From an uncultured delta proteobacterium (GTDB lineage Bacteria; Desulfobacterota; RBG-13-43-22), in NCBI GenBank assembly GCA_963743305.1, contig CAVUPH010000008.1, forward strand, positions 67,679-131,678: 64,000 bases of DNA, read 5' to 3'. Shown in pieces: positions 1,718-23,837 of the stretch. The notes below the pieces were generated by a model that was not told the DNA's origin, did no database searches, and was given only the letters and a program-made list of their open reading frames with translations. Position numbers and translations under genes: made by a program. Each line of letters opens with the position of its first letter. Within the stretch, counting starts at the first letter, position 1.

Positions 1718-2843
1718 ATGCCGCCAACAGATGCGCCCAAAAGTCACCCGGTTGGAATGAATCCTGTTTTTTCGATCCCGCAGCTTTACGAGGCCATTCT
1801 CAGAAACCTGCCGGTCGGTTTTTCCCTGGTCGACCAGGAAGGAATTATCCTGGAGTTTAATCCGGCCGCGGAGGAGCTCACGGGATATTCGCGAGATGAA
1901 ATTTTGGGGAAATCCCACCTCCAGATCTTCCACGGCTCATCCGATCCCCATTCCTGTCCTTTATTTTCACAGGCCTTTGAACAGCGCACCTCTTCGATCG
2001 CCACGGAAGGAATTCTTTATAAAAAGACCGGGGAAGCGCATTACCTTATCTTTGACGATCTTTCCACTCTTTGACGACGCGGGAAATTTTCTCGGCGGGG
2101 TCGAATTGTTCCGGGACATCACTGAAATAAAGCAGAAGGAAAGGGAACGAAAAAACTTTCTCTCCATGCTGGTCCACGACATGAAAAATCCGATCGTCAT
2201 CGGCGAAGGTTTTTTGAACAGGCTGCTCGCCGAAAAGGCCGGTCCGCTCACGGAAAAACAGAAGGATTACCTGTCCATCATCAGGGATGAAACCGCCAAA
2301 TTACAGCGAATAGTAGCGGACTTTCTCGACTTTTCCAAATTTGAGAGAAATCAATATCAACCGGCCCCGGCCCCCTATAATCTGGAAGAAGCCCTCGGCC
2401 ATCGACTCGAAGCTATGCGGGTAATGGCCGAGAAAAAAAACCTGCAATTATCTTTCGAATATGACCAGGAAAGCCTGCCCATTATTTACGCGGATGCGGC
2501 CATGATCGACCGGGTGATCTCGAATCTTCTGGACAATGCCGTCAAATATACCGAGGTGGGGGGAGCGATAACCGTGCGGCTGGTAAACCGAACTGAGGAC
2601 GTTCTGGTGGAGGTCTCGGATACCGGGATAGGCCTTCGTCCGGAAGACTTGCCCTGCGTTTTCGATGCCTTCTGCCGGATCGATAAAAAGGCCGAAGGCT
2701 CCGGCCTCGGGCTATCCATCGCCAAAGCCATTGTGACCGCCCATGGGGGAACGATCTCGGTAGAAAGTACTTTTGGAAAGGGCAGTATCTTTCGCTTCAC
2801 CCTGCCGAAAAACGGCAGGGCCTATACGGGGTTTTCCAGCTGA
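1718..2843 (+). CDS. PAS-domain sensor histidine kinase (frameshift near 2031)
   Basis: PAS (FNPAAEELTGY...ILGK) in ORF 1718; H-box SMLVHDMKNP, NLLDNAVKY, DTGIG and GSGLGL in ORF 1896; frames join at the G-run near 2030-2033. Confidence 0.85.
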
Positions 2844-2888: not shown

Positions 2889-2933
2889 TGAACCCCAGTC
2901 CCGTCTCCTAAAACAGGACGGGGCTGGGGTTCA
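2889..2933. terminator. hairpin between convergent genes
   Basis: TGAACCCCAGTCCCGTC ... GACGGGGCTGGGGTTCA. Confidence 0.65.
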
Positions 2934-2983: not shown

Positions 2984-3800
2984 TTAAAGCACCTTGCCGG
3001 GCCATCCCTGTTCCAGGTTGTATTTTTGGACCTCTTCGATGCTGGACAGGGCTTCAATCGCCGCCTTATGGTCCCAGGAGGCCTGGTAGTTCCGGTATAC
3101 CCATCCGGTCATGGCCGCCTGAAACACCAGGAGTACCTTTCGGTCCATGACGATATTCCGGTTGTCCGCCGAGCGCCAGCCAAACCCCTCCGGTAATTTG
3201 GAGTCTGAGGCCGCCAACATGGCGGTTGTAGCGGCCAGGGCGTTTCGACTCCGCTCGCTGCTGTCGAACAGAACTCCTTTGAATTGTACTCCCCCCGAAA
3301 GCTTCCGGTCCCGTAACGCATTGACATCTTGTTGCCGGGCTTCTTTGACCTCTTCCAGGGTGACCAGCAATTTCCTGATGATGGCCATCAGCCGATCCGG
3401 CTCAACCGGCTTTTCCAGAAATCCGTCCGGCTCGCGAGGCAATGAAGCGCCCCAGCACCTCCTCCGAGGTCTTATCGTCCAAAACCGGGCCGTCCTCGCG
3501 AAACTGACGTAATTCCGCCAGGTGCTTCAGGAAACCGCCTTCTCCGGTGAGGATGATGATCGGGATGTCCTTGAGGCGCTCATTTCCTCTGAGGTCGTTA
3601 AAAACCATAATGCCGTTTTTCTTGGGCATGCGCAGGTCGAGGAGGATCAGCCCGGGCTTGACCGTCTCCACCTTCTCCAACCCTTCCACTCCGTCAAAGG
3701 CCGCCTGGATGTCCGTAAAGCCGTTCTCCTCCAGGATGGTGGTCAAATAACGGACATTGCTCTGGTCATCATCAATAATCAATACATTCACAGGTTTCAT
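2984..3800 (-). CDS. response regulator receiver domain with C-terminal DUF4376-like domain (frameshift near 3433)
   Basis: REC motifs LIIDDD, LLDLRMP and IIILTG in one frame; the essential FLEKP is in the other frame, followed by RDRKLSGGVQF...FDS...WRSADN...HKAAIEAL...GWP. Confidence 0.7.
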
Positions 3801-3916: not shown

Positions 3917-5816
3917 CTACTCGTTCGATCGTTGGAGTTGGGAAGGGATCGACACGCTAAACCGGGAGCCCTTTCCGGGCTCGGATTCAACCGAAATCTT
4001 GCCGCCGTGCTCCTCAATAATCTTGGCGGTGGTACTAAGCCCGAGGCCGGTCCCTTTATAGCTCTTGGTGCTGAAAAACCGTTTGAAAAGTTGTTCCCGG
4101 ACCTCCGGGCCCATCCCGATGCCGTTATCGCTCACGATAAAGCGGATCTCCCGGTCGACTCGCTCAATCCGAACATCCACCCGGGGGCTTTCCCCCGGGG
4201 CGTAGGTTTTTTCTTTGCAGGCCTCCACGGCGTTGGTTACCAAATTCAGCAGGGCGCGCCCGACGGCATCCGGATCCAGGTGAGCGATCTCATCTTCTCC
4301 CCCGCGGCAGGTGAGCGCAATGCCCTGCTGCTGGGCGGATTTCCGCACCAACTCCACGGCGTCCCGGGCCAGTTGATAAGGGCTGACGGGAACAGGAACG
4401 GGTCTTCGCTCCCGGCAATAGCTCAGCAGGTCCAGGCTGATCTTGCTGATCCGGTCGACGCCTTCCTGCACGGTCTCCCAACCCTCACGGGTTAGTTTGG
4501 AGTCATTCCGTTTCAGGCCCACCTCCACCATATAGGCGCCGCCCTTCAGTCCGTTCAGGACGTTTTTCATGCAATGGGTAACGCTGGCCACCGTCTGGCC
4601 TACGGCGGCCAGCCGCTCCTGCTCCAGCAGTTGTTTGCGCAGACGGTTTTCCTCGGAGATGTCCTTGCTGATCCCAACGGTGCCCAGGACCTTTCCCTGA
4701 ACATCCCGCAGTTGGGCGAGGGAAAGGCCGATTTCCACCACCTGCCCGTTCTTGGCGACCAGAGCGCCCGTCGTGTTATTCACCGCCCCGCTGGCTTCAA
4801 CCTGTCTCATGATTTCCCGGCGAATCCCAGGCTCTTTCCAGAATTTTTCCATCGGGACGCCGATCATCTCGTCCCGGGTGTAGCCCAGCATCCGCTCAGC
4901 CGCCGGGTTGACGGTCACGATACGACCCTCTGTATCGGTGGTGATGATCAAGTCATAGGAGTTGGAGAGAATATTCTCCAGGTATTCCTTGTTCCGGCGC
5001 AGCTCTTCCTGAAGGGCCACCTCTTCCGTCACATCCCTGGAGATAATGGCCAGGGAATCCATCCCACCCTGCTCATTAAAAATCGGGAAGCGCACCGTAT
5101 TATAGTAGCGGACTTCGCCGGCTATCTGCATCCGATCTTTGGAGAATCGGGTCTTCCGCTCCCTGACCACCTCCTGATGGTTCTCATACATGGCCCTGGC
5201 CTGGGGTTCAGGGAAAAGCTCAAAATCCGTATGGCCGATGACCTGTTCCCGGGATAAACCCGTGGACCGACTTCCGGCCGGATTGACGTACAGGTACCGA
5301 CCTTCCAGGTCTTTAATGATAATGACGTCGTGGGCCGACTCCAGGAACTGCCGGAGCTTGTTTTCCGACTCCACCTGCAAGGCCTGTTTCTCGATTTCCA
5401 TCTGAATCAAGTCCCACAGCAGCCGGGCACCGCGGTGGTCGATGAAACTGACCTCCAGAGGGATGGTCCGAATGACCTGCTCCCGGACCGCCGGGGAGCC
5501 GGTCAACTCGATGATCAAATTCGAGTCCGGGAAGACTGTAGAGTTCAGAGAAATCCTCGGTCGTGAACAATCCCAGCTCTCGGGCGCGGGAAATGCCGGG
5601 GGCTTGCGGGTTGGGGTCGGCCACGCCCAGGATTTCCATTTTCAGGTGGGTTAGACGTTCGTCGCTGAGCAGGGTGAGCAGGTCCGAACAGGACTTTCCA
5701 CCGCCGATGATCGCCGCCTTGAGCGGTACGCGGGATTGGCCCCCCCGCCGGAGGGGATAAACTTTTTCCCGAGAGGCAGCGATACTGGGATTCGTTTCAT
5801 CGGTGACTTTAGGCAT
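3917..5816 (-). CDS. PAS-PAS histidine kinase with N-terminal Rossmann-like (BkdR N-terminus-like) domain (frameshift near 5522)
   Basis: AAIIGGGKS...GVADPNPQAPG...IIELTG; two PAS domains; VTHCMKNVL, NLVTNA, DNGIG, GTGLGL. Confidence 0.85.
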
Positions 5817-5957: not shown

Positions 5958-5973
5958 TGCAACCCTCGTACCA
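5958..5973 (-). promoter_or_regulatory. sigma54 -24/-12 promoter for the kinase/receiver pair
   Basis: TGGTAC-GAGGG-TTGCA on the minus strand; TGAAAC motifs ~200 bp upstream (6163-6190). Confidence 0.7.
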
Positions 5974-6287: not shown

Positions 6288-7649
6288 TCACTTTTTTCGG
6301 CTGCGGCCGTCCGTTTCCGGCACCTCCAACTGCAAGGCCTTTATTTTTCGGTAGAGGGAGCTCACATCAATACCCAGCTCCCGGGCGGCCTGTTTCCGGT
6401 TTCCCGAACAACGCCATAAGGTTTCCAGGATGAGCCGCTTTTCCATGGCCTCCAGGCTCATCGGGCCGAAGGTTTCCCCGGTGGAATCAGCGGGCGGACG
6501 CATTTCAGGAGGCAGATGCGTCATCTCGATCAACCCGCCGCGGCAGAGCACAAAAGCCTGCTCGATAATGTTTTCCAGTTCCCGGATATTGCCCGGATAA
6601 TCATACTCCAACAGCCGGGCCATGGCCTCCTGGGAAATCCCGGCAATCTGCTTTCCCTGCAGGCGGTTGAACTTGGCCACTAGATGATCCACCAGGAGCG
6701 GGATGTCTTCCCGCCGTTCCTTCAGGGGCGGCAGCTTCAGATGGATAACATGCAGGCGGTAATAGAGGTCCTCGCGAAACCGGCCGGCCTGAATGAGCCC
6801 GGTCAGGTCCTGATGGGTGGCGGCCACGACCCGGACATCCACCGGGACAGGTTCGAGACCCCCTAGAGGCTCAACCTGGCGTTCCTGGAGCACCCGCAGC
6901 AGGCGTACCTGCATGGCCGGCGAGATATCGCCGATTTCATCTAAGAACAGGGTCCCCCCGTTGGCCAGGACAAAGCGGCCCACCTTTTCCCGTTTGGCGT
7001 CGGTAAAGGCCCCGGCCTTGTGCCCAAACAGTTCGCTTTCCAGCAGGGTGTCCGGCAGGGCCGCGCAGTTCAAGGCCAGGAAACGCTTTTTCCGGCGGGG
7101 AGACTGGTTGTGAATAGCCTTGGCGAAAAGTTCTTTCCCGGTGCCGCTGGGGCCCTCAATCAGCACCGTACTGTTGCTTTCGGCAATCTGAGGGACCACC
7201 TCGAATAACTGCATCATGGCCGGACTTCGTCCGATGATGTCCTCAAACGAATGCCGGTTGAGCAATTCTTTTTGCAGCTCCTCGACCTGGCTGAGGTCCT
7301 GAAAAGTTTCCACTCCGCCGATGACCTCTCCGGCGCTGTTTTCTAGAATGGCGGTGCCGATGCGGATCGGCACCCGTTGTCCCCGGTTGTTGATGATGCC
7401 GGCGGTGGCGTTAACGATCGGATGGCCGGTGGTGAAGGTTCGCTTGAGGGCACAATCCTTTTCACAGATATCGGCGTGAAACACATCGGAACAGGAGCGG
7501 CCGAGGGCCTTCCTTCGGGACACGCCGGTTATCCGTTCCGCGGCCCGGTTAAAAGCCGTAATTCGCCAGTCGGGACCAACCGTAAACACCCCTTCGTTGA
7601 TGGAATCCAGGATAACGTCTCGTAGACCTATTTCCTCCTCCATTTTCAT
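6288..7649 (-). CDS. PAS-domain sigma54-dependent transcriptional activator (Fis-type HTH)
   Basis: GPSGTGKE, ESELFGH, GAFTDA, LFLDEIG, YPGNIREL, C-terminal HTH. Confidence 0.95.
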   Translation of the reverse strand: MKMEEEIGLRDVILDSINEGVFTVGPDWRITAFNRAAERITGVSRRKALGRSCSDVFHADICEKDCALKRTFTTGHPIVNATAGIINNRGQRVPIRIGTAILENSAGEVIGGVETFQDLSQVEELQKELLNRHSFEDIIGRSPAMMQLFEVVPQIAESNSTVLIEGPSGTGKELFAKAIHNQSPRRKKRFLALNCAALPDTLLESELFGHKAGAFTDAKREKVGRFVLANGGTLFLDEIGDISPAMQVRLLRVLQERQVEPLGGLEPVPVDVRVVAATHQDLTGLIQAGRFREDLYYRLHVIHLKLPPLKERREDIPLLVDHLVAKFNRLQGKQIAGISQEAMARLLEYDYPGNIRELENIIEQAFVLCRGGLIEMTHLPPEMRPPADSTGETFGPMSLEAMEKRLILETLWRCSGNRKQAARELGIDVSSLYRKIKALQLEVPETDGRSRKK

Positions 7650-7800
7650 CCCCAGGCCTCCAGTACCTCACTACTATTAATCGTGCAAAATAAAATCTTT
7701 TTCTTTCAATAGAATAGTATTTTGAATGACTATTGTCAACGATACAAGGGAAAGATTTCCCAACCAGCCGCTTTTAAACAACTATTTAATCGCCGGGCCT

Positions 7801-7816
7801 TGGCCCCCGGATTGCA
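7801..7816 (+). promoter_or_regulatory. sigma54 -24/-12 promoter
   Basis: TGGCCC-CCGGA-TTGCA just upstream of ATG 7830, divergent from a sigma54 activator. Confidence 0.7.
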
Positions 7817-7829
7817 TTTTATAGGATTC

Positions 7830-8247
7830 ATGAAGGTCGCAGTGGCTCATTGGCAGGGGAGGGTAGCTCCGGTGTTTGACGTATCGGACAACGTCTACCT
7901 GATCCAGTGTACGGGAGGGCGGGAAGTCAAGCGGGAAAAAATAACCCTGAACTGCCATGATCCCTTCCACCGGGCCAAAGAGGTAACCGGCTTAGGGACG
8001 CAAACCCTGATCTGCGGAGCGGTTTCGACCCCTCTGGAGACAGCCCTGGAGGCGGCCGGGGTCCGGGTCATCGGGTTTATCTGCGGCGACCTGGAGGTGG
8101 TCCTCCGGGCCTTTTTGTGTGGGATCGCTGCATCGACCCTGCTTTCGAATGCCCGGCTGGGTTCCCCGGGGCCGGCCAACCCGCTGCCGCAGGCTAATTA
8201 ACTGGAACCCGGAGATGCGGAAATGGAAAAAAACGGAAAGGGGGTGA
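7830..8247 (+). CDS. NifB/NifX-family (dinitrogenase FeMo-cofactor biosynthesis-like) protein (frameshift near 8121)
   Basis: MKVAV...RVAPVFD...LICGAVS...FICG; the shifted frame restores the family-like tail CFRMPG to TGA at 8245-8247. Confidence 0.75.
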
Positions 8248-8252
8248 TTTGT

Positions 8253-8498
8253 ATGCCTCGTGGTGATAAAACGGGACCGTTGGGCCAAGGCCCCATGACC
8301 GGCCGGGGCGCCGGGCCCTGTACTACCGGTTCTTCGAAGGGCCTTCTGGGCCGGAAATTAAACGGCGATTTTGGGCAACCGGGTTCTTTTCAACGGAAGG
8401 CCGGTAACGGTTTTCTGGGTTGGTTCGGTCTGGGCTTGGGTCGAGGCCGGGGTAGTCTTTCGGGCCTGGGAAGCCGTCGTCGTTGGTTCAACTGGTAA
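8253..8498 (+). CDS. DUF5320-family Gly/Arg-rich protein
   Basis: MPRGDKTGPLGQGPMTGRGAGPC signature. Confidence 0.8.
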   Translation: MPRGDKTGPLGQGPMTGRGAGPCTTGSSKGLLGRKLNGDFGQPGSFQRKAGNGFLGWFGLGLGRGRGSLSGLGSRRRWFNW

Positions 8499-8557
8499 TC
8501 AATGTTTTCTAATCTATACTCAAACAGAAATTCAACCACCGGAAAGGAGGTTCGATC

Positions 8558-8918
8558 ATGCCCAGAGGGGACAGGACAGGGCCCATGGGAATGGGGCCGA
8601 TGACCGGCCGGGGAGGCGGGTATTGCACCGGCTCCGGGAGGCCCGCATTTAATCAGGGAGGCTGGGGTAGCTTTTTCAGCAACGGCCCGGGTCTGGGTTC
8701 CGGCTGGGGAGGCGGCGGCCGAGGGTTATGCCGTTGGTTCTTCGGTGCCGGTCTGCCGGCCTGGAGGCGTTTCGCCGGTGGGGGTGCTTCCGTTCGAAGG
8801 ATCGGATCCGGATTTGGAAAAACGGTCGCTGAAAGGCCAGGCGGAAGCCTTGCAGTCCGAGTTGGACAGGATCAAAAAACGCATTCAGGAAATGGAATCC
8901 CGCCCCGCCTCCGAGTAA
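8558..8918 (+). CDS. DUF5320-family protein with C-terminal coiled coil (frameshift near 8783)
   Basis: MPRGDRTGPMGMGPMTGRGGGYC; after a G-run the shifted frame reads LKGQAEALQSELDRIKKRIQEME to TAA at 8916-8918; RBS GAAAGGAGG. Confidence 0.8.
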
Positions 8919-8927
8919 ACCCGCTGC

Positions 8928-8968
8928 AAAAGGCGGCCCGTCTCCCGGTAGGGAGGCAGGCCGCCTTT
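8928..8968. terminator. intrinsic terminator
   Basis: AAAGGCGGCC...TCTCCC-GGTA-GGGAGG...GGCCGCCTTT directly after the corrected stop. Confidence 0.7.
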
Positions 8969-9115
8969 ATAAATTTTCCCTGGCGCCCGGAACGCCCCGG
9001 TTCCCGTCAGGCTGAACCCCTCAGAGAACCGTCAGCCGGACATTCCCTCGCTGGACGGCGTTTCGATTTGACACCCATGGCCAGGACCTCCGCGGTGTAG
9101 GAATTCCCCAGGATA

Positions 9116-20845: not shown

Positions 20846-21217
20846 TTACTTGAATTTTTTAGCCGCCTTCTCCACCAGTTTAACGATCTGCTCCAGCTTA
20901 AAAGGTTTGGTGACAAATTGGGCGTTCAGATATTCGGCTTCCCGGGCGCTTTCAATCGTCGCGTATCCGGTAATGACAATGGCTTCGGTATCCCGTTTCC
21001 GGTCTTTGAGAAACCGCAGGACATCAATGCCGGTAGGCCCGCTCATTTTCAGATCGGTTACCAGGACCTGAAAATGCTTCTCCTCCAGCCGGTTGATCGC
21101 CTGCCGACTGTCGGTAAAAACTTCCACCTGAAAGCCCTCCTTTTCCAAGACCGGCCGGAGCCGCTCCCCGACGATCGGTTCATCGTCCAGGACCATGACA
21201 GCAATATCACTTTTCAT
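20846..21217 (-). CDS. stand-alone response regulator
   Basis: LDDEPIV, TDLKM, ITGYAT, TKPF. Confidence 0.92.
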   Translation of the reverse strand: MKSDIAVMVLDDEPIVGERLRPVLEKEGFQVEVFTDSRQAINRLEEKHFQVLVTDLKMSGPTGIDVLRFLKDRKRDTEAIVITGYATIESAREAEYLNAQFVTKPFKLEQIVKLVEKAAKKFK

Positions 21218-21267
21218 TGGAACCTCCTTCCCCTTTAAGGACCTTTCCCCAATCGAAAAAACCATCT

Positions 21268-23837
21268 TCAATCGGTCTGGAGATGGGCTTTCGCCTCCCC
21301 CTCAAAGAACTGGTTGGTAAAAAAATCGATATCTTGATCCGTCCGCAATAAGATGTCCAGTTGCCGGGTGTAGCCGATTAATCGTCCCAGCATACGAAAT
21401 TTGTTTTCCATATTCGGGCGGTCCATCTTTTTAATACGGCCGATGATCAAGTCCGCTTTGCTTTCCACGGCAAAATCATTTTTTTCCAAAATCTGAGCCA
21501 ACACCCTGACCCGTCGGCTCCGGCGGGTGAATTCGGTGACGCCGCCGAAGAATCGAAAATAGAGGTAGTTGCTGTTGCGGTCGTCGGAAAGGTAGCCGTC
21601 CACCATATTAAAATGGTACCCCAGACCTAAATTTAGATTGATATATTCTTTGGAGACAATGGCTAGATTCACATTCGAGCTATCGGCGGCCAGCGCCTGG
21701 GTGGAAAGGTTGCTGGTAAAGCTGGAAATGAAGCCCTTCAGGTCCAAATCCACCGGTTGGGACTGCCAGACCCCCGGCGCGATCAAAGCCCGGAGCAGGA
21801 TGGACAAAGGTTCGCAGGCGATCTCTTCCAGGGAGATTTCGTTGGAAGAAAGGCCCGTTCGGATCCCCCCCCCGATGTCCAGGATGGTCAGGTCCAAGGG
21901 GACGGACAACTTCACTTTAGTCAACGAATGCGTAAAACCCAACTGGCTGGGGTGTATGCCCTGGGCGATCCTCCGGACCGCCATTTCATGGGAAAACCGG
22001 ATGATGTCGTGAAACGTTTTACAGTGGGCCGAATCAAAATCAGTGGATTGGGGATCGGTCACGTTCAGGATGGAAACCTTTTTTAATAAGCGCCGCAGCA
22101 ATTTGAATTCATAGGTTTCTTCATAGGGGAGGCGATCGATCAACTGGGCGGTCAGGAGTTCTTTGACGATCCCCTGATAGATCACATTCTCTTCGGCATC
22201 CACCGTCACTTCCATTCCGGATTTCAGGACCTCCGTAGCCAAGGCGGTATCCACGATGGTCGGCACCCGGAATTCCCGACAAATGGTGGCCATGTGACCG
22301 GTGACGGCCCCGATATCGGTCACCACCGCACTGGCGGCGGGAACCAGTTTGGATAGGCGGGGCGAAGTATGTTTCAAGACCAGCACCGCGCCGCGGGGAA
22401 AATGTCGGCTGTCCTCTTCGGACTGCACTTGGAAAACGGTCCCGGCCCCGATACCCCGGCTGGCGATCACCCCCCGGTCTTTTAGCAATATCGGATATTG
22501 CTGGGCGGCGGTAATGAGCCGGTTTTTATCCAATTTCAATTTCCCGGTAAATTGGAGCGGCCGGGCCTGGAGGTAGGTGACTTGGCCCTGGGTATCGATG
22601 GCCCATTCGATGTCCTGGAAGGATTTCATGTATTGTTCAATCCGGACGGCCCCGGCCAGAACTTCGCGCATCCGGGATTCATCCAGACAGGGGACCTCCT
22701 GCTTTTCCGGAAGGACCGGAACCAGGGCGATCCCCCCGGCTTCAGTCCAGCCATATTGTTTACTTTTACGGCCGATGCGCTGCCACAGAACCGGATAAGG
22801 TGGATTTTTGGAAACTTTATATTGATCCACTTCTCCCTCCCCGTCCACCACCAATTTTCCCAATCCCCAGGCAGCCGCCAGGATCATTTCGTTTCCTTCA
22901 AAGCCATTGGGATCTGCGGTGTAGACCACCCCGCTGACCTGAGGAGAGAGCATGGACAGGCAACCGACGGCCATAGCCATTTCCTGCTGCCGGCTCCCCC
23001 GCTGCAGGCGATACTGGATCACCGGGGGAGCAAACAGACTGGCCACTACCTGTTTGTAGCCGGCCTCGATTTGCGCCGAGGGAACATTTAAAACCGTGGT
23101 ATACTGGCCGGCATAGCTGATTTGGCTGTCTTCCCCGACCGCGCTGCTGCGCACCGCCCAGTGCTTCACCGGGAGGGCTTCCCGGGAAGAAAGTTCTTTC
23201 CGGATGGCCTTCCTGATTTCCGAGGGGACCTTGGCCCGCAGGATCCGTTCCCGCAGTTCCCGGGCCTTTTCCTCCATGACCTCCGGTTGTAACTTTCCTT
23301 CTCCCAGGGGGGCCACCAGGGATTCCAACTGGTTGGCTTCGATAAATTGCTTGAACGCATAGGTGGAAATCACAAAACCTTCCGGAACCCGCAAACCCAA
23401 ACGGTTCCGGAGTTCCCCAGGGAAGCCATTTTTTCCCCGGCAAAATCGGACATTTCTTTGGTCAGTTCCCGCAGCGGATAAACGTAGTCTCCTTTGGGAA
23501 TGGTGAAGCGGGAGTCCAGCTCGCCTTGAATTTCTATTTTAGCCTTTTCGAAAACGGTGAACAGCTCCAGGTACTTTTGGGGAGTGATTAAATTGAGATT
23601 GTAGACGACTTTATAGACTGCCTCCTCCAACTCGGCGATCACGGTCTCAATATACTGCTTGTCGAACAGATAATCGCCGCCTAGTTTTTCCCCCATATCG
23701 GCCATCAGGTCCAATGCCCGGTTGTTGTAATCCAACAGTTCCCGGAAGCTTTGGAACAGAAACTGCAGGCTTAGTCCTTCCTGGTTTTTTTTTCGTCGGA
23801 AAAAGGATTTGACGGAATCCAGCATCATGTACGGCAC
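21268..23837 (-). CDS. PEP synthase/pyruvate,water dikinase-like protein with atypical C-terminus (frameshift near 23416)
   Basis: GEKMASLG, AVRSSAVGED, YAGQY, DIEWA, LQARP, His domain TGHMATICRE; one extra G in a G-run restores LGELRNRLGL. Confidence 0.85.

Follow-up and report, generated by a model that had tools for sequence, protein, structure and literature searches.

Results

A response regulator gene interrupted by one extra base

The window, by which we mean the whole stretch of DNA analysed here (64,000 nucleotides of contig CAVUPH010000008.1 from an uncultured delta proteobacterium), carries a response regulator gene at 2984..3800 on the minus strand. Its 271-amino-acid product joins a receiver domain (REC; residues 1–145, 3365..3800) to a DUF4376 domain (residues 146–271, 2987..3364, with the Pfam match at 3032–3352). 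In the assembly, the gene appears as two overlapping open reading frames (ORFs) on the minus strand that are joined across one extra base. The upstream ORF (3402–3800; 132 amino acids) encodes the front of REC. Its residues 6–88 match PF00072 over profile positions 1–80 of 111, and the last third of the domain is missing from this ORF as judged by Pfam coverage. The downstream ORF (2984–3442; 152 amino acids), which lies in frame +1 relative to the upstream ORF, begins with DGFLEKPVEPDRLM, the β5/α5 part of REC with its conserved lysine, and then continues into DUF4376. Residues 31–137 of this ORF match PF14301 (DUF4376) with an E value of 4.6e-19 and 69.3 bits against a cut-off of 25. The ORF also matches tail and tail-fibre families of PHROGs, the best of which is phrog_2837 (6.1e-19).

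When the window is aligned to the genome of a member of the same genus (93% DNA identity), the extra, frame-shifting base falls at window position 3433 (3433..3433). A single four-letter step at this position yields P0017, a protein of 271 amino acids that shares 93% identity with P0001, an intact ortholog, and has no stop codons or further defect. Pfam detects both PF00072 and PF14301 on P0017, P0001, and P0016. A preliminary description of this DNA had claimed that REC is complete only when the two ORFs are joined, with the conserved FLEKP motif located in the downstream frame and running on into DUF4376. It had also pointed to an indel near 3433 as the place to be corrected. These observations were borne out in every detail checked, and the corrected frame gives the REC+DUF4376 protein P0017.

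The fusion is conserved among related bacteria

A single open frame of 279–301 amino acids spans the region in 4 related genomes. A database search returned 16 protein clusters, 14 of which are 271 amino acids in length, and all 16 are labelled with PF00072 and PF14301. Scanning with an alignment of the DUF4376 part gave 48 loci, 13 from species-representative genomes and 35 from metagenomes. Full REC and DUF4376 occupy one frame in 42 of the 48; the remaining six comprise four loci that are cut by contig ends (one of which, L017, retains partial REC) and two (L054 and L055) that are without REC. The preliminary description had considered that DUF4376 or phage matches might fail to appear, or that the two parts might prove separate or chimeric. 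The matches exist, and homologs together with an independent contig (see below) present one gene and no chimera. We are highly confident of the identity of the gene and its family.

The 13 species-representative loci are labelled delta proteobacterium, Thermodesulfobacteriota, Desulfobacteraceae, and Candidatus Desulfacyla metagenome-assembled genomes. In an even sample of the phylum that includes the source genome, the domain clade occurs in 6 of 401 genomes and is confined to two families. Among 40 closer relatives, the regulator is present in 4 of 20 genomes of the same family and in 0 of 20 from other families. DUF4376 is held at 49–89% identity over 44 loci. The median ratio of nonsynonymous to synonymous substitution rates (dN/dS) is 0.135 for REC and 0.27 for DUF4376. 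The comparison used 13 gap-free genes of 271 amino acids, of whose 78 pairs 18 were usable (dS of 0.05–1.5 in both halves). Purifying selection acts on both halves of the protein and is weaker on the output half.

Databases name members of the family "response regulator", "CheY-like chemotaxis protein", or "DUF4376 domain-containing protein". The REC+DUF4376 architecture, which the preliminary description had suggested looking for in InterPro, is already held in public databases with both Pfam labels, but it is unstudied; our literature search found no paper on DUF4376 in a response regulator.

In the two loci without REC, L054 (507–920, plus strand) and L055 (689–1105, plus strand), an ORF of 137 amino acids contains only the last two thirds of DUF4376. 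Upstream of the ORF, in the same frame, is a peptide that by eye resembles the final part of a kinase ATPase domain, and a catalase gene lies next to the ORF. It is probably a deletion remnant of a kinase–regulator pair.

The receiver domain contains a conserved insertion

For REC of P0017, P0001, and P0016, the PF00072 score is 75.7–77 bits (75.7 for the window gene), where the cut-off is 30.2. An insertion in the α4 region limits the match to profile positions 1–80 of 111. Asp10, Asp11, Asp55, Thr85, and Lys130 do not vary among the 16 aligned members. By analogy with CheY as it is generally known, these residues would form the phospho-acceptor machinery, with Asp55 (codon 3636–3638) as the phospho-acceptor and Lys130 encoded at 3410–3412. 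Judged by the invariance of these five residues, the machinery is complete.

Thr85 and Lys130 are separated by 45 residues in the family, compared with about 22 residues between Thr87 and Lys109 of E. coli CheY. This agrees with the preliminary description, which had noticed an insertion of about 25 residues after β4. The inserted segment (about 23 residues within residues 87–121; 3438..3542, minus strand) is highly conserved in the family alignment, and Pfam and PDB receiver alignments end near residue 88. No receiver paralog in the source genome aligns beyond about residue 104. A search with the insertion region returned 73 protein clusters, 68 of which carry PF00072 and PF14301 and five PF00072 alone; the five include P0018, a frameshifted protein of 244 amino acids, and two short proteins (159 and 161 amino acids). 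One family member, P0201, is encoded on a contig of 8.16 Mb that may represent a complete genome. To the extent that these clusters represent the family, the insertion is family-specific and found only together with DUF4376, with 68 of 73 clusters carrying both and the other 5 carrying PF00072 only. The insertion is located on the face that receivers usually employ for output. This location, together with its co-occurrence with DUF4376, suggests that REC and DUF4376 act together.

The AlphaFold2 (AF2) model of REC contains β1–β4 and α1–α3; the predicted local distance difference test (pLDDT) score falls below 50 in the α4/β5 region. Structure prediction and Foldseek comparison had been proposed in the preliminary description, and they gave matches of REC to the receivers of CheY, PleD, and RssB (E about 1e-6) and of the DUF4376 fold to phage models, as described below. 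The best NCBIfam match of REC is NF045717 (DVU0259/DivK-type; E 1.7e-20, residues 5–87). Its score of 73 bits is far under that family's cut-off of 160, and the family is without DUF4376. In a protein atlas, the closest language-model neighbours of P0001 are stand-alone receivers of 127–130 amino acids, which fall in generic receiver clusters only.

The C-terminal domain resembles phage DUF4376 proteins

The C-terminal domain scores 67.5–69.6 bits against PF14301 (cut-off 25) and covers profile positions 1–101 or 1–105 of 106. In an alignment of 150 DUF4376 sequences, conservation reaches 90% or more at the following nearly invariant positions, every one of which the regulator retains: Arg163, Pro203, Phe206, Trp208, Arg209, Asn213, Trp242, Lys245, and Trp266. 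AF2 modelling of the domain alone, with 141 aligned sequences, gave a pLDDT of 97.5 and a predicted template modelling (pTM) score of 0.88. The model contains three main helices and two β-hairpins in the order helix, β-hairpin, helix, β-hairpin, long helix, short helix. A search of BFVD with this model returned 40 matches at E≤1e-3, headed by named phage DUF4376 proteins (TMq 0.7–0.83). The preliminary description had recognized DUF4376 by eye; Pfam, PHROGs, and the match of the predicted fold to phage models now identify the domain as such.

Searches of the PDB were less informative. Foldseek with the DUF4376 model found nothing at E≤1e-3, phmmer returned only chance-level matches to chlorophyll-binding proteins, and a profile search gave one chance-level match; neither sequence nor fold search of the PDB found a solved DUF4376 structure. 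The best VIA Z score against the PDB was 7.6, which is within noise for helical proteins. Prefoldin beta chains gave nearly full-length structural alignments with Z scores of 6.0–7.4, below the tool's meaningful Z for helical proteins, and we regard them as a lead only. Chain 7ypx_a, from a fibre of cyanophage Pam3, was matched at Z 5.8–6.8, likewise below that level.

Comparison with phage chaperones and interaction-type regulators

The literature that we found on DUF4376 deals mostly with phages and prophages and treats the domain only as the C-terminal module of chaperones for tail fibres or receptor-binding proteins (RBPs). The following statements draw on excerpts of the cited papers. The DUF4376 protein gp27 of Alteromonas phage V22 is required for active tail fibres (PMC7289586). 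V22 gp27 and gp9 of phage A5, also an Alteromonas phage, have an alpha-helical body predicted to be homotrimeric and are likened to intramolecular chaperone domains (PMC10579305, section 11). Such domains occur in phage fibres and tailspikes, among them those of K1F and T5; no K1F or T5 chain appeared among the matches listed by our fold searches. The H-fibre of the Campylobacter element CJIE1 depends on a downstream DUF4376 gene, and a division of labour is described in which fibre binding falls to a variable N-terminus and multimerisation to a conserved C-terminus (PMC7882524, citing North et al. 2019). In phage F341, the N-terminal part of the chaperone resembles that of the CJIE1 chaperone, and the far C-terminus of the RBP is nearly identical to that of the CJIE1 fibre; the chaperone role of the F341 protein (F341_034) is predicted only (PMC10877375). 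V22 and A5 also keep, within the host-recognition module and a few genes away from the DUF4376 chaperone, a CheY-like gene (gp30 and gp11, 66% similar; PMC10579305, Table 2 and section 7). A literature search for PF14301 or IPR025484 returned Campylobacter phage work only, and one joining response regulator or receiver output with tail fiber assembly returned nothing.

The regulator resembles these chaperones (V22 gp27, A5 gp9, CJIE1, and F341_034) in its C-terminal PF14301, predicted fold, and nearly invariant residues. In the chaperones the N-terminus is a variable part that matches the fibre, whereas in the regulator it is a receiver domain. The chaperones adjoin a fibre gene in a phage or prophage; the regulator lies outside phages and is paired with a histidine kinase.

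RssB, in which a receiver is followed by an inactive PP2C-like adaptor, acts by protein interaction, as do CpdR and CheY. The regulator shares with these proteins a complete phospho-acceptor pocket and the lack of a DNA-binding or recognisable enzymatic output, and RssB receivers are among both the fold and the family matches of REC. However, the outputs of RssB, CpdR, and CheY are unrelated to DUF4376, and the α4 insertion of about 23 residues is specific to the regulator family.

Phage relatives of the DUF4376 domain

When the DUF4376 domain was used as a phmmer query, 612 of 1.84 billion representatives matched at E≤1e-3. The best 150 of the 612 are mostly proteins of 100–230 amino acids with C-terminal DUF4376, and 0 of these 150 contain a REC-like region; in 10 non-fused relatives sampled by Pfam, DUF4376 stands alone. 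In a FastTree phylogeny of 185 distinct domain rows, a single clade with a support of 100 unites 38 fused sequences with four short ones (P0019, P0020, P0022, and P0028), which may be fragments or remnants. The tree has no root, the sister group of this clade has weak support (41), and context is known for only a minority of the 147 other rows. One member of the sister group, P0025, is encoded on a 543-kb viral contig (L074), two genes after a protein that matches baseplate and tail PHROGs. Of the traits of phage chaperones, proximity to a baseplate/tail-like gene is found in this viral relative; the regulator's neighbours are not tail-fibre or RBP genes, and its N-terminus is REC.

Phage records contain relatives of the domain and not the fusion. 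The best match is from a 469-kb Sinorhizobium phage (33.6% identity, E 2e-13), and 0 of the 52 matching records among 50,697 cover at least 80% of P0001. Scans of viral contigs with P0021, P0023, and the alignment of the fused clade found nothing. The matches in Campylobacter phage DA10 and Sinorhizobium phage Phosso are surrounded by hypothetical proteins only. Four Alteromonas phage records match REC over residues 1–88 or 6–119 at 23–33% identity, which indicates no specific link, and none is labelled V22 or A5.

One fused clade, a viral relative, and the lack of a fusion in phage records fit a single capture: the fusion would have arisen once from a phage-borne pool of DUF4376, in an ancestor within Thermodesulfobacteriota, and have been kept by selection.

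The regulator is paired with a PAS–PAS histidine kinase

Immediately upstream of the regulator, on the same strand, lies a probable cognate histidine kinase (3917..5816), which is split by a one-base insertion near 5523. Pfam identifies two PAS domains and HATPase in it, together with a HisKA match that is weak (E 0.037) and falls below the cut-off, and assigns nothing to an N-terminal region of about 150 amino acids. An ortholog of this kinase (52–100% identity) is found upstream and on the same strand in all 33 loci whose upstream flank reaches 900 nt; ten loci with shorter flanks are outside this count. The kinase is within 1 kb of the regulator in 32 of these 33 loci and 1.1 kb away in L049.

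Beyond the kinase, no candidate partner gene recurs in both clades, and no tail, fibre, baseplate, or other phage genes were found near the 48 loci, as far as these were clustered and sampled. The lack of phage context claimed in the preliminary description holds for the neighbours examined. DUF4376 has only one match in the 4.9-Mb source genome.

The N-terminal region of the kinase (5313–5816, minus strand; 8821–9290 in L007) contains a glycine-rich AAIIGGGKS segment that, by eye, resembles a dinucleotide-binding motif. This region may be an undescribed sensor domain.

A model for REC+DUF4376 function

We propose that the adjacent, cytoplasmic PAS–PAS kinase phosphorylates Asp55 of the regulator; the kinase is taken as the partner because of the conserved adjacency and the intact catalytic residues. 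REC would have replaced the fibre-specific N-terminal module of a phage chaperone, and its phosphorylation would control self-association or partner binding through DUF4376, since the phage papers propose that the DUF4376 body drives multimerisation and assembly. The product would be a regulator of the protein-interaction type, like RssB and CpdR, rather than a transcription factor or an enzyme. Phosphorylation-gated self-association or partner binding is a tentative proposal to which we give somewhat less than an even chance. For the reading as a whole, in which an intact REC+DUF4376 regulator gene works with a kinase partner, has an interaction output, and stems from a single phage-derived origin, we hold a modestly favourable view that represents a compromise between our high confidence in identity and our lower confidence in mechanism. 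The preliminary description had spoken of a phage domain domesticated as a signalling output. A conserved bacterial fusion, outside phages and accompanied by a kinase, is what we observe; the signalling output is a step that we infer.

Several points weigh against this reading. Functions of DUF4376 are described for phage settings only. The conserved polar and aromatic residues (R, W-R, N, W, K, and W-P) could equally well belong to a ligand-binding or catalytic site. The full-length AF2 model has a pTM of 0.58, with pLDDT below 50 at residues 95–116 and 124–132, and provides no confident interface between REC and DUF4376. Neither sequence search of the PDB (profile at E≤10, or single-sequence) returned a phage tail-fibre assembly protein, so the link to Mu-type Tfa drawn in PMC7882524 was not reproduced. 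Finally, no candidate partner gene is conserved beside the kinase–regulator pair across both clades.

The lack of a conserved target gene nearby is also what would be expected if DUF4376 were a passive appendage, such as a stabilising tail or one for constitutive oligomerisation, and the protein a CheY-like single-domain regulator or phosphate sink. The stronger constraint on REC than on DUF4376 and the stand-alone receivers found as closest language-model neighbours point in the same direction. However, a passive tail would not readily account for the preservation of all nearly invariant DUF4376 residues of the wider family, the retention of the domain across so many loci, or the co-occurrence of DUF4376 with an insertion on the output face of REC that suggests joint working. 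We consider this explanation unlikely.

Less probable still is that the domain continues to chaperone a trimeric fibre of the host (a tailocin, a contractile injection system, or an adhesin), with REC making assembly signal-dependent. Phage DUF4376 proteins are required for functional fibres, according to excerpts of PMC7289586 and PMC7882524, and the residues of the family core are kept in the regulator. Such a role is hard to reconcile with the replacement of the fibre-specific N-terminal part by REC, with the lack of tail, fibre, or baseplate genes near the 48 loci as far as these were clustered and sampled, and with the single DUF4376 match in the genome.

It is tempting to speculate that the DUF4376 body has an activity that is independent of fibres (for example, nucleation of trimeric assembly) and that this activity was captured by bacteria and placed under control of phosphorylation. 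In its boldest form, the regulator may be a kinase-gated anti-phage decoy that recognises or mis-assembles the fibres of incoming phages. Alternatively, REC and DUF4376 may cooperate in phages as well, and the fusion would be a "Rosetta stone" for the pair of CheY-like protein and chaperone in V22 and A5; this idea arises because a CheY-like gene lies near the DUF4376 chaperone in both phages (excerpts of PMC10579305). Taken jointly, we rate these possibilities as slim.

For the kinase-controlled interaction regulator that we favour, the interest lies in its output. Response regulators are classed by output, and a DUF4376 output is otherwise described, in the papers found, only in chaperones of tail fibres and RBPs. 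The regulator would be a clean case of a phage structural-assembly module that was recruited to host signalling and is stably held by sulfate-reducer-type bacteria of sediment and groundwater. It offers a phage-free, switchable setting in which to ask what the conserved DUF4376 module does, a question that also stands for the phage chaperones. Specialists in two-component systems should find the architecture moderately surprising.

Origin of the interrupted frame

The extra base at 3433 is, in our judgement, very probably an assembly or consensus error. A 318-nt contig of public run X1 spans 3392–3710 and omits the base; it has one other mismatch and is 99.7% identical to the window. Contigs of runs X2 and X3 omit a base at 2038/2039. 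In comparison with the same-genus genome G002, six one-base indels occur in about 17 kb (2038, 3433, 5523, 20417, 21264, and 23418), five of which fall in four genes that are split in the window and whole in G002. The insertions near 2038 and 5523 split two kinase genes that neighbour the regulator (1718–2843, plus strand, and 3917–5816, minus strand; 368 and 632 amino acids in the relative). The indels at 21264 and 23418 cut one gene (20846–23837, minus strand; 951 amino acids in the relative) into three ORFs at a distance of 17–20 kb from the regulator. An assembly error is favoured because the X1 contig is without the base, the neighbouring kinases are split likewise, and further indels lie 17–20 kb on. 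This case rests on contigs and comparisons rather than on raw reads of the source sample, and the contigs are possibly those of another strain, which counts against it.

A genuine frameshift would make the regulator and the two neighbouring kinases pseudogenes in a decaying signalling locus of this strain. The base is indeed present in the assembled window, both kinases are also split by one-base insertions, and another assembly contains a second frameshifted copy of the regulator, P0018. Against decay stand the nearly identical contig without the base, the purifying selection on orthologs, and the window copy itself, which aside from 3433 is 93% identical to an intact ortholog and free of stop codons. 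The indels that split the distant 951-amino-acid gene fit general consensus error better than local decay. We therefore judge the pseudogene explanation very improbable. A reading of the domains as two distinct genes, or as a chimeric assembly mistaken for one gene, is suggested only by the two ORFs in the window and is already refuted by the unbroken frames in relatives, the 16 clusters, the 42 of 48 independent loci from many assemblies with both domains in an uninterrupted frame, and a REC fold that is complete only across the junction, which leaves it virtually no chance.

If the frameshift is an assembly error, as we read it, further genes that appear split in this assembly are probably artefactual as well. 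The window's assembly is rich in single-base indels that split genes, and its split genes need to be read with caution. In P0018, the frame is lost at a different place, within DUF4376, and the regulator family is evidently prone to mis-calling in error-rich assemblies.

Surroundings of the kinase–regulator pair

The preliminary description had called the upstream gene a sigma54-controlled PAS kinase. The PAS kinase is there; control by sigma54 is partly shown. A −24/−12-like site, TGGTACGAGGGTTGCA (5958..5973, minus strand), lies 142 nt before the kinase start with one mismatch to the consensus. L008 and L009 contain the identical site, but it was not detected in L007. Such sites occur 12 times in the window, with 13 expected by chance, and the exact consensus has 0 matches. 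Upstream of the kinase, Pfam identifies an activator with PAS, sigma54-interaction AAA+, and Fis-HTH domains (6288..7649, minus strand). It is present upstream only in L010–L013, a close clade, at 89–97% identity; L017 and L018 contain weak matches to it (35–38% identity) that are not orthologs.

Neighbours in the window include histidine kinases, the sigma54 activator, NMO, DsrE, and DUF5320. Those at other loci include CBS-pair, BatD/TPR, and other proteins, and CBS-pair often flanks the kinase–regulator pair in the distant clade. Rfam identified only two tRNAs in five loci. As a candidate defence system, the locus was set aside: PADLOC matched only REC (SduA model, residues 5–64), and the activator matched RtcR/PspF-like models.

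In the distant clade, kinase and regulator are separated by a conserved ORF of about 94 amino acids on the opposite strand, which begins with MSIAYPV (for example, L019 5146–5430 and L027 4113–4502, both minus strand). Located at this position in 17 loci, it has an unbroken frame in 9 of 9 inspected and matches nothing in Pfam; no copy was found in the source genome. In the same-genus genome, a 5.3-kb insertion (L007 11650–16970) separates the regulator from the next kinase. It contains four ORFs (301, 307, 426, and 364 amino acids), three without a Pfam match and one with a weak metallo-beta-lactamase match.

A strong hairpin (2889..2933, minus strand) with a 17-bp stem lies 50 nt after the stop codon of the regulator gene, between this gene and the convergent kinase gene. 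Its folding energy is −32.9 kcal/mol (z −4.9), and 0 of 200 shuffled sequences were as stable. A scan for consensus terminators missed the hairpin because it is without a T run. It is probably a two-way terminator, though without a clear U tract.

Divergent from the sigma54 activator, at 7722–9100 on the plus strand, lie an ORF of 159 amino acids without a Pfam match and, after it, two Gly/Arg-rich ORFs. The ORF at 8558–9100, the one scanned, matches DUF5320. Close relatives keep these ORFs, the 159-amino-acid one at 76–90% identity.

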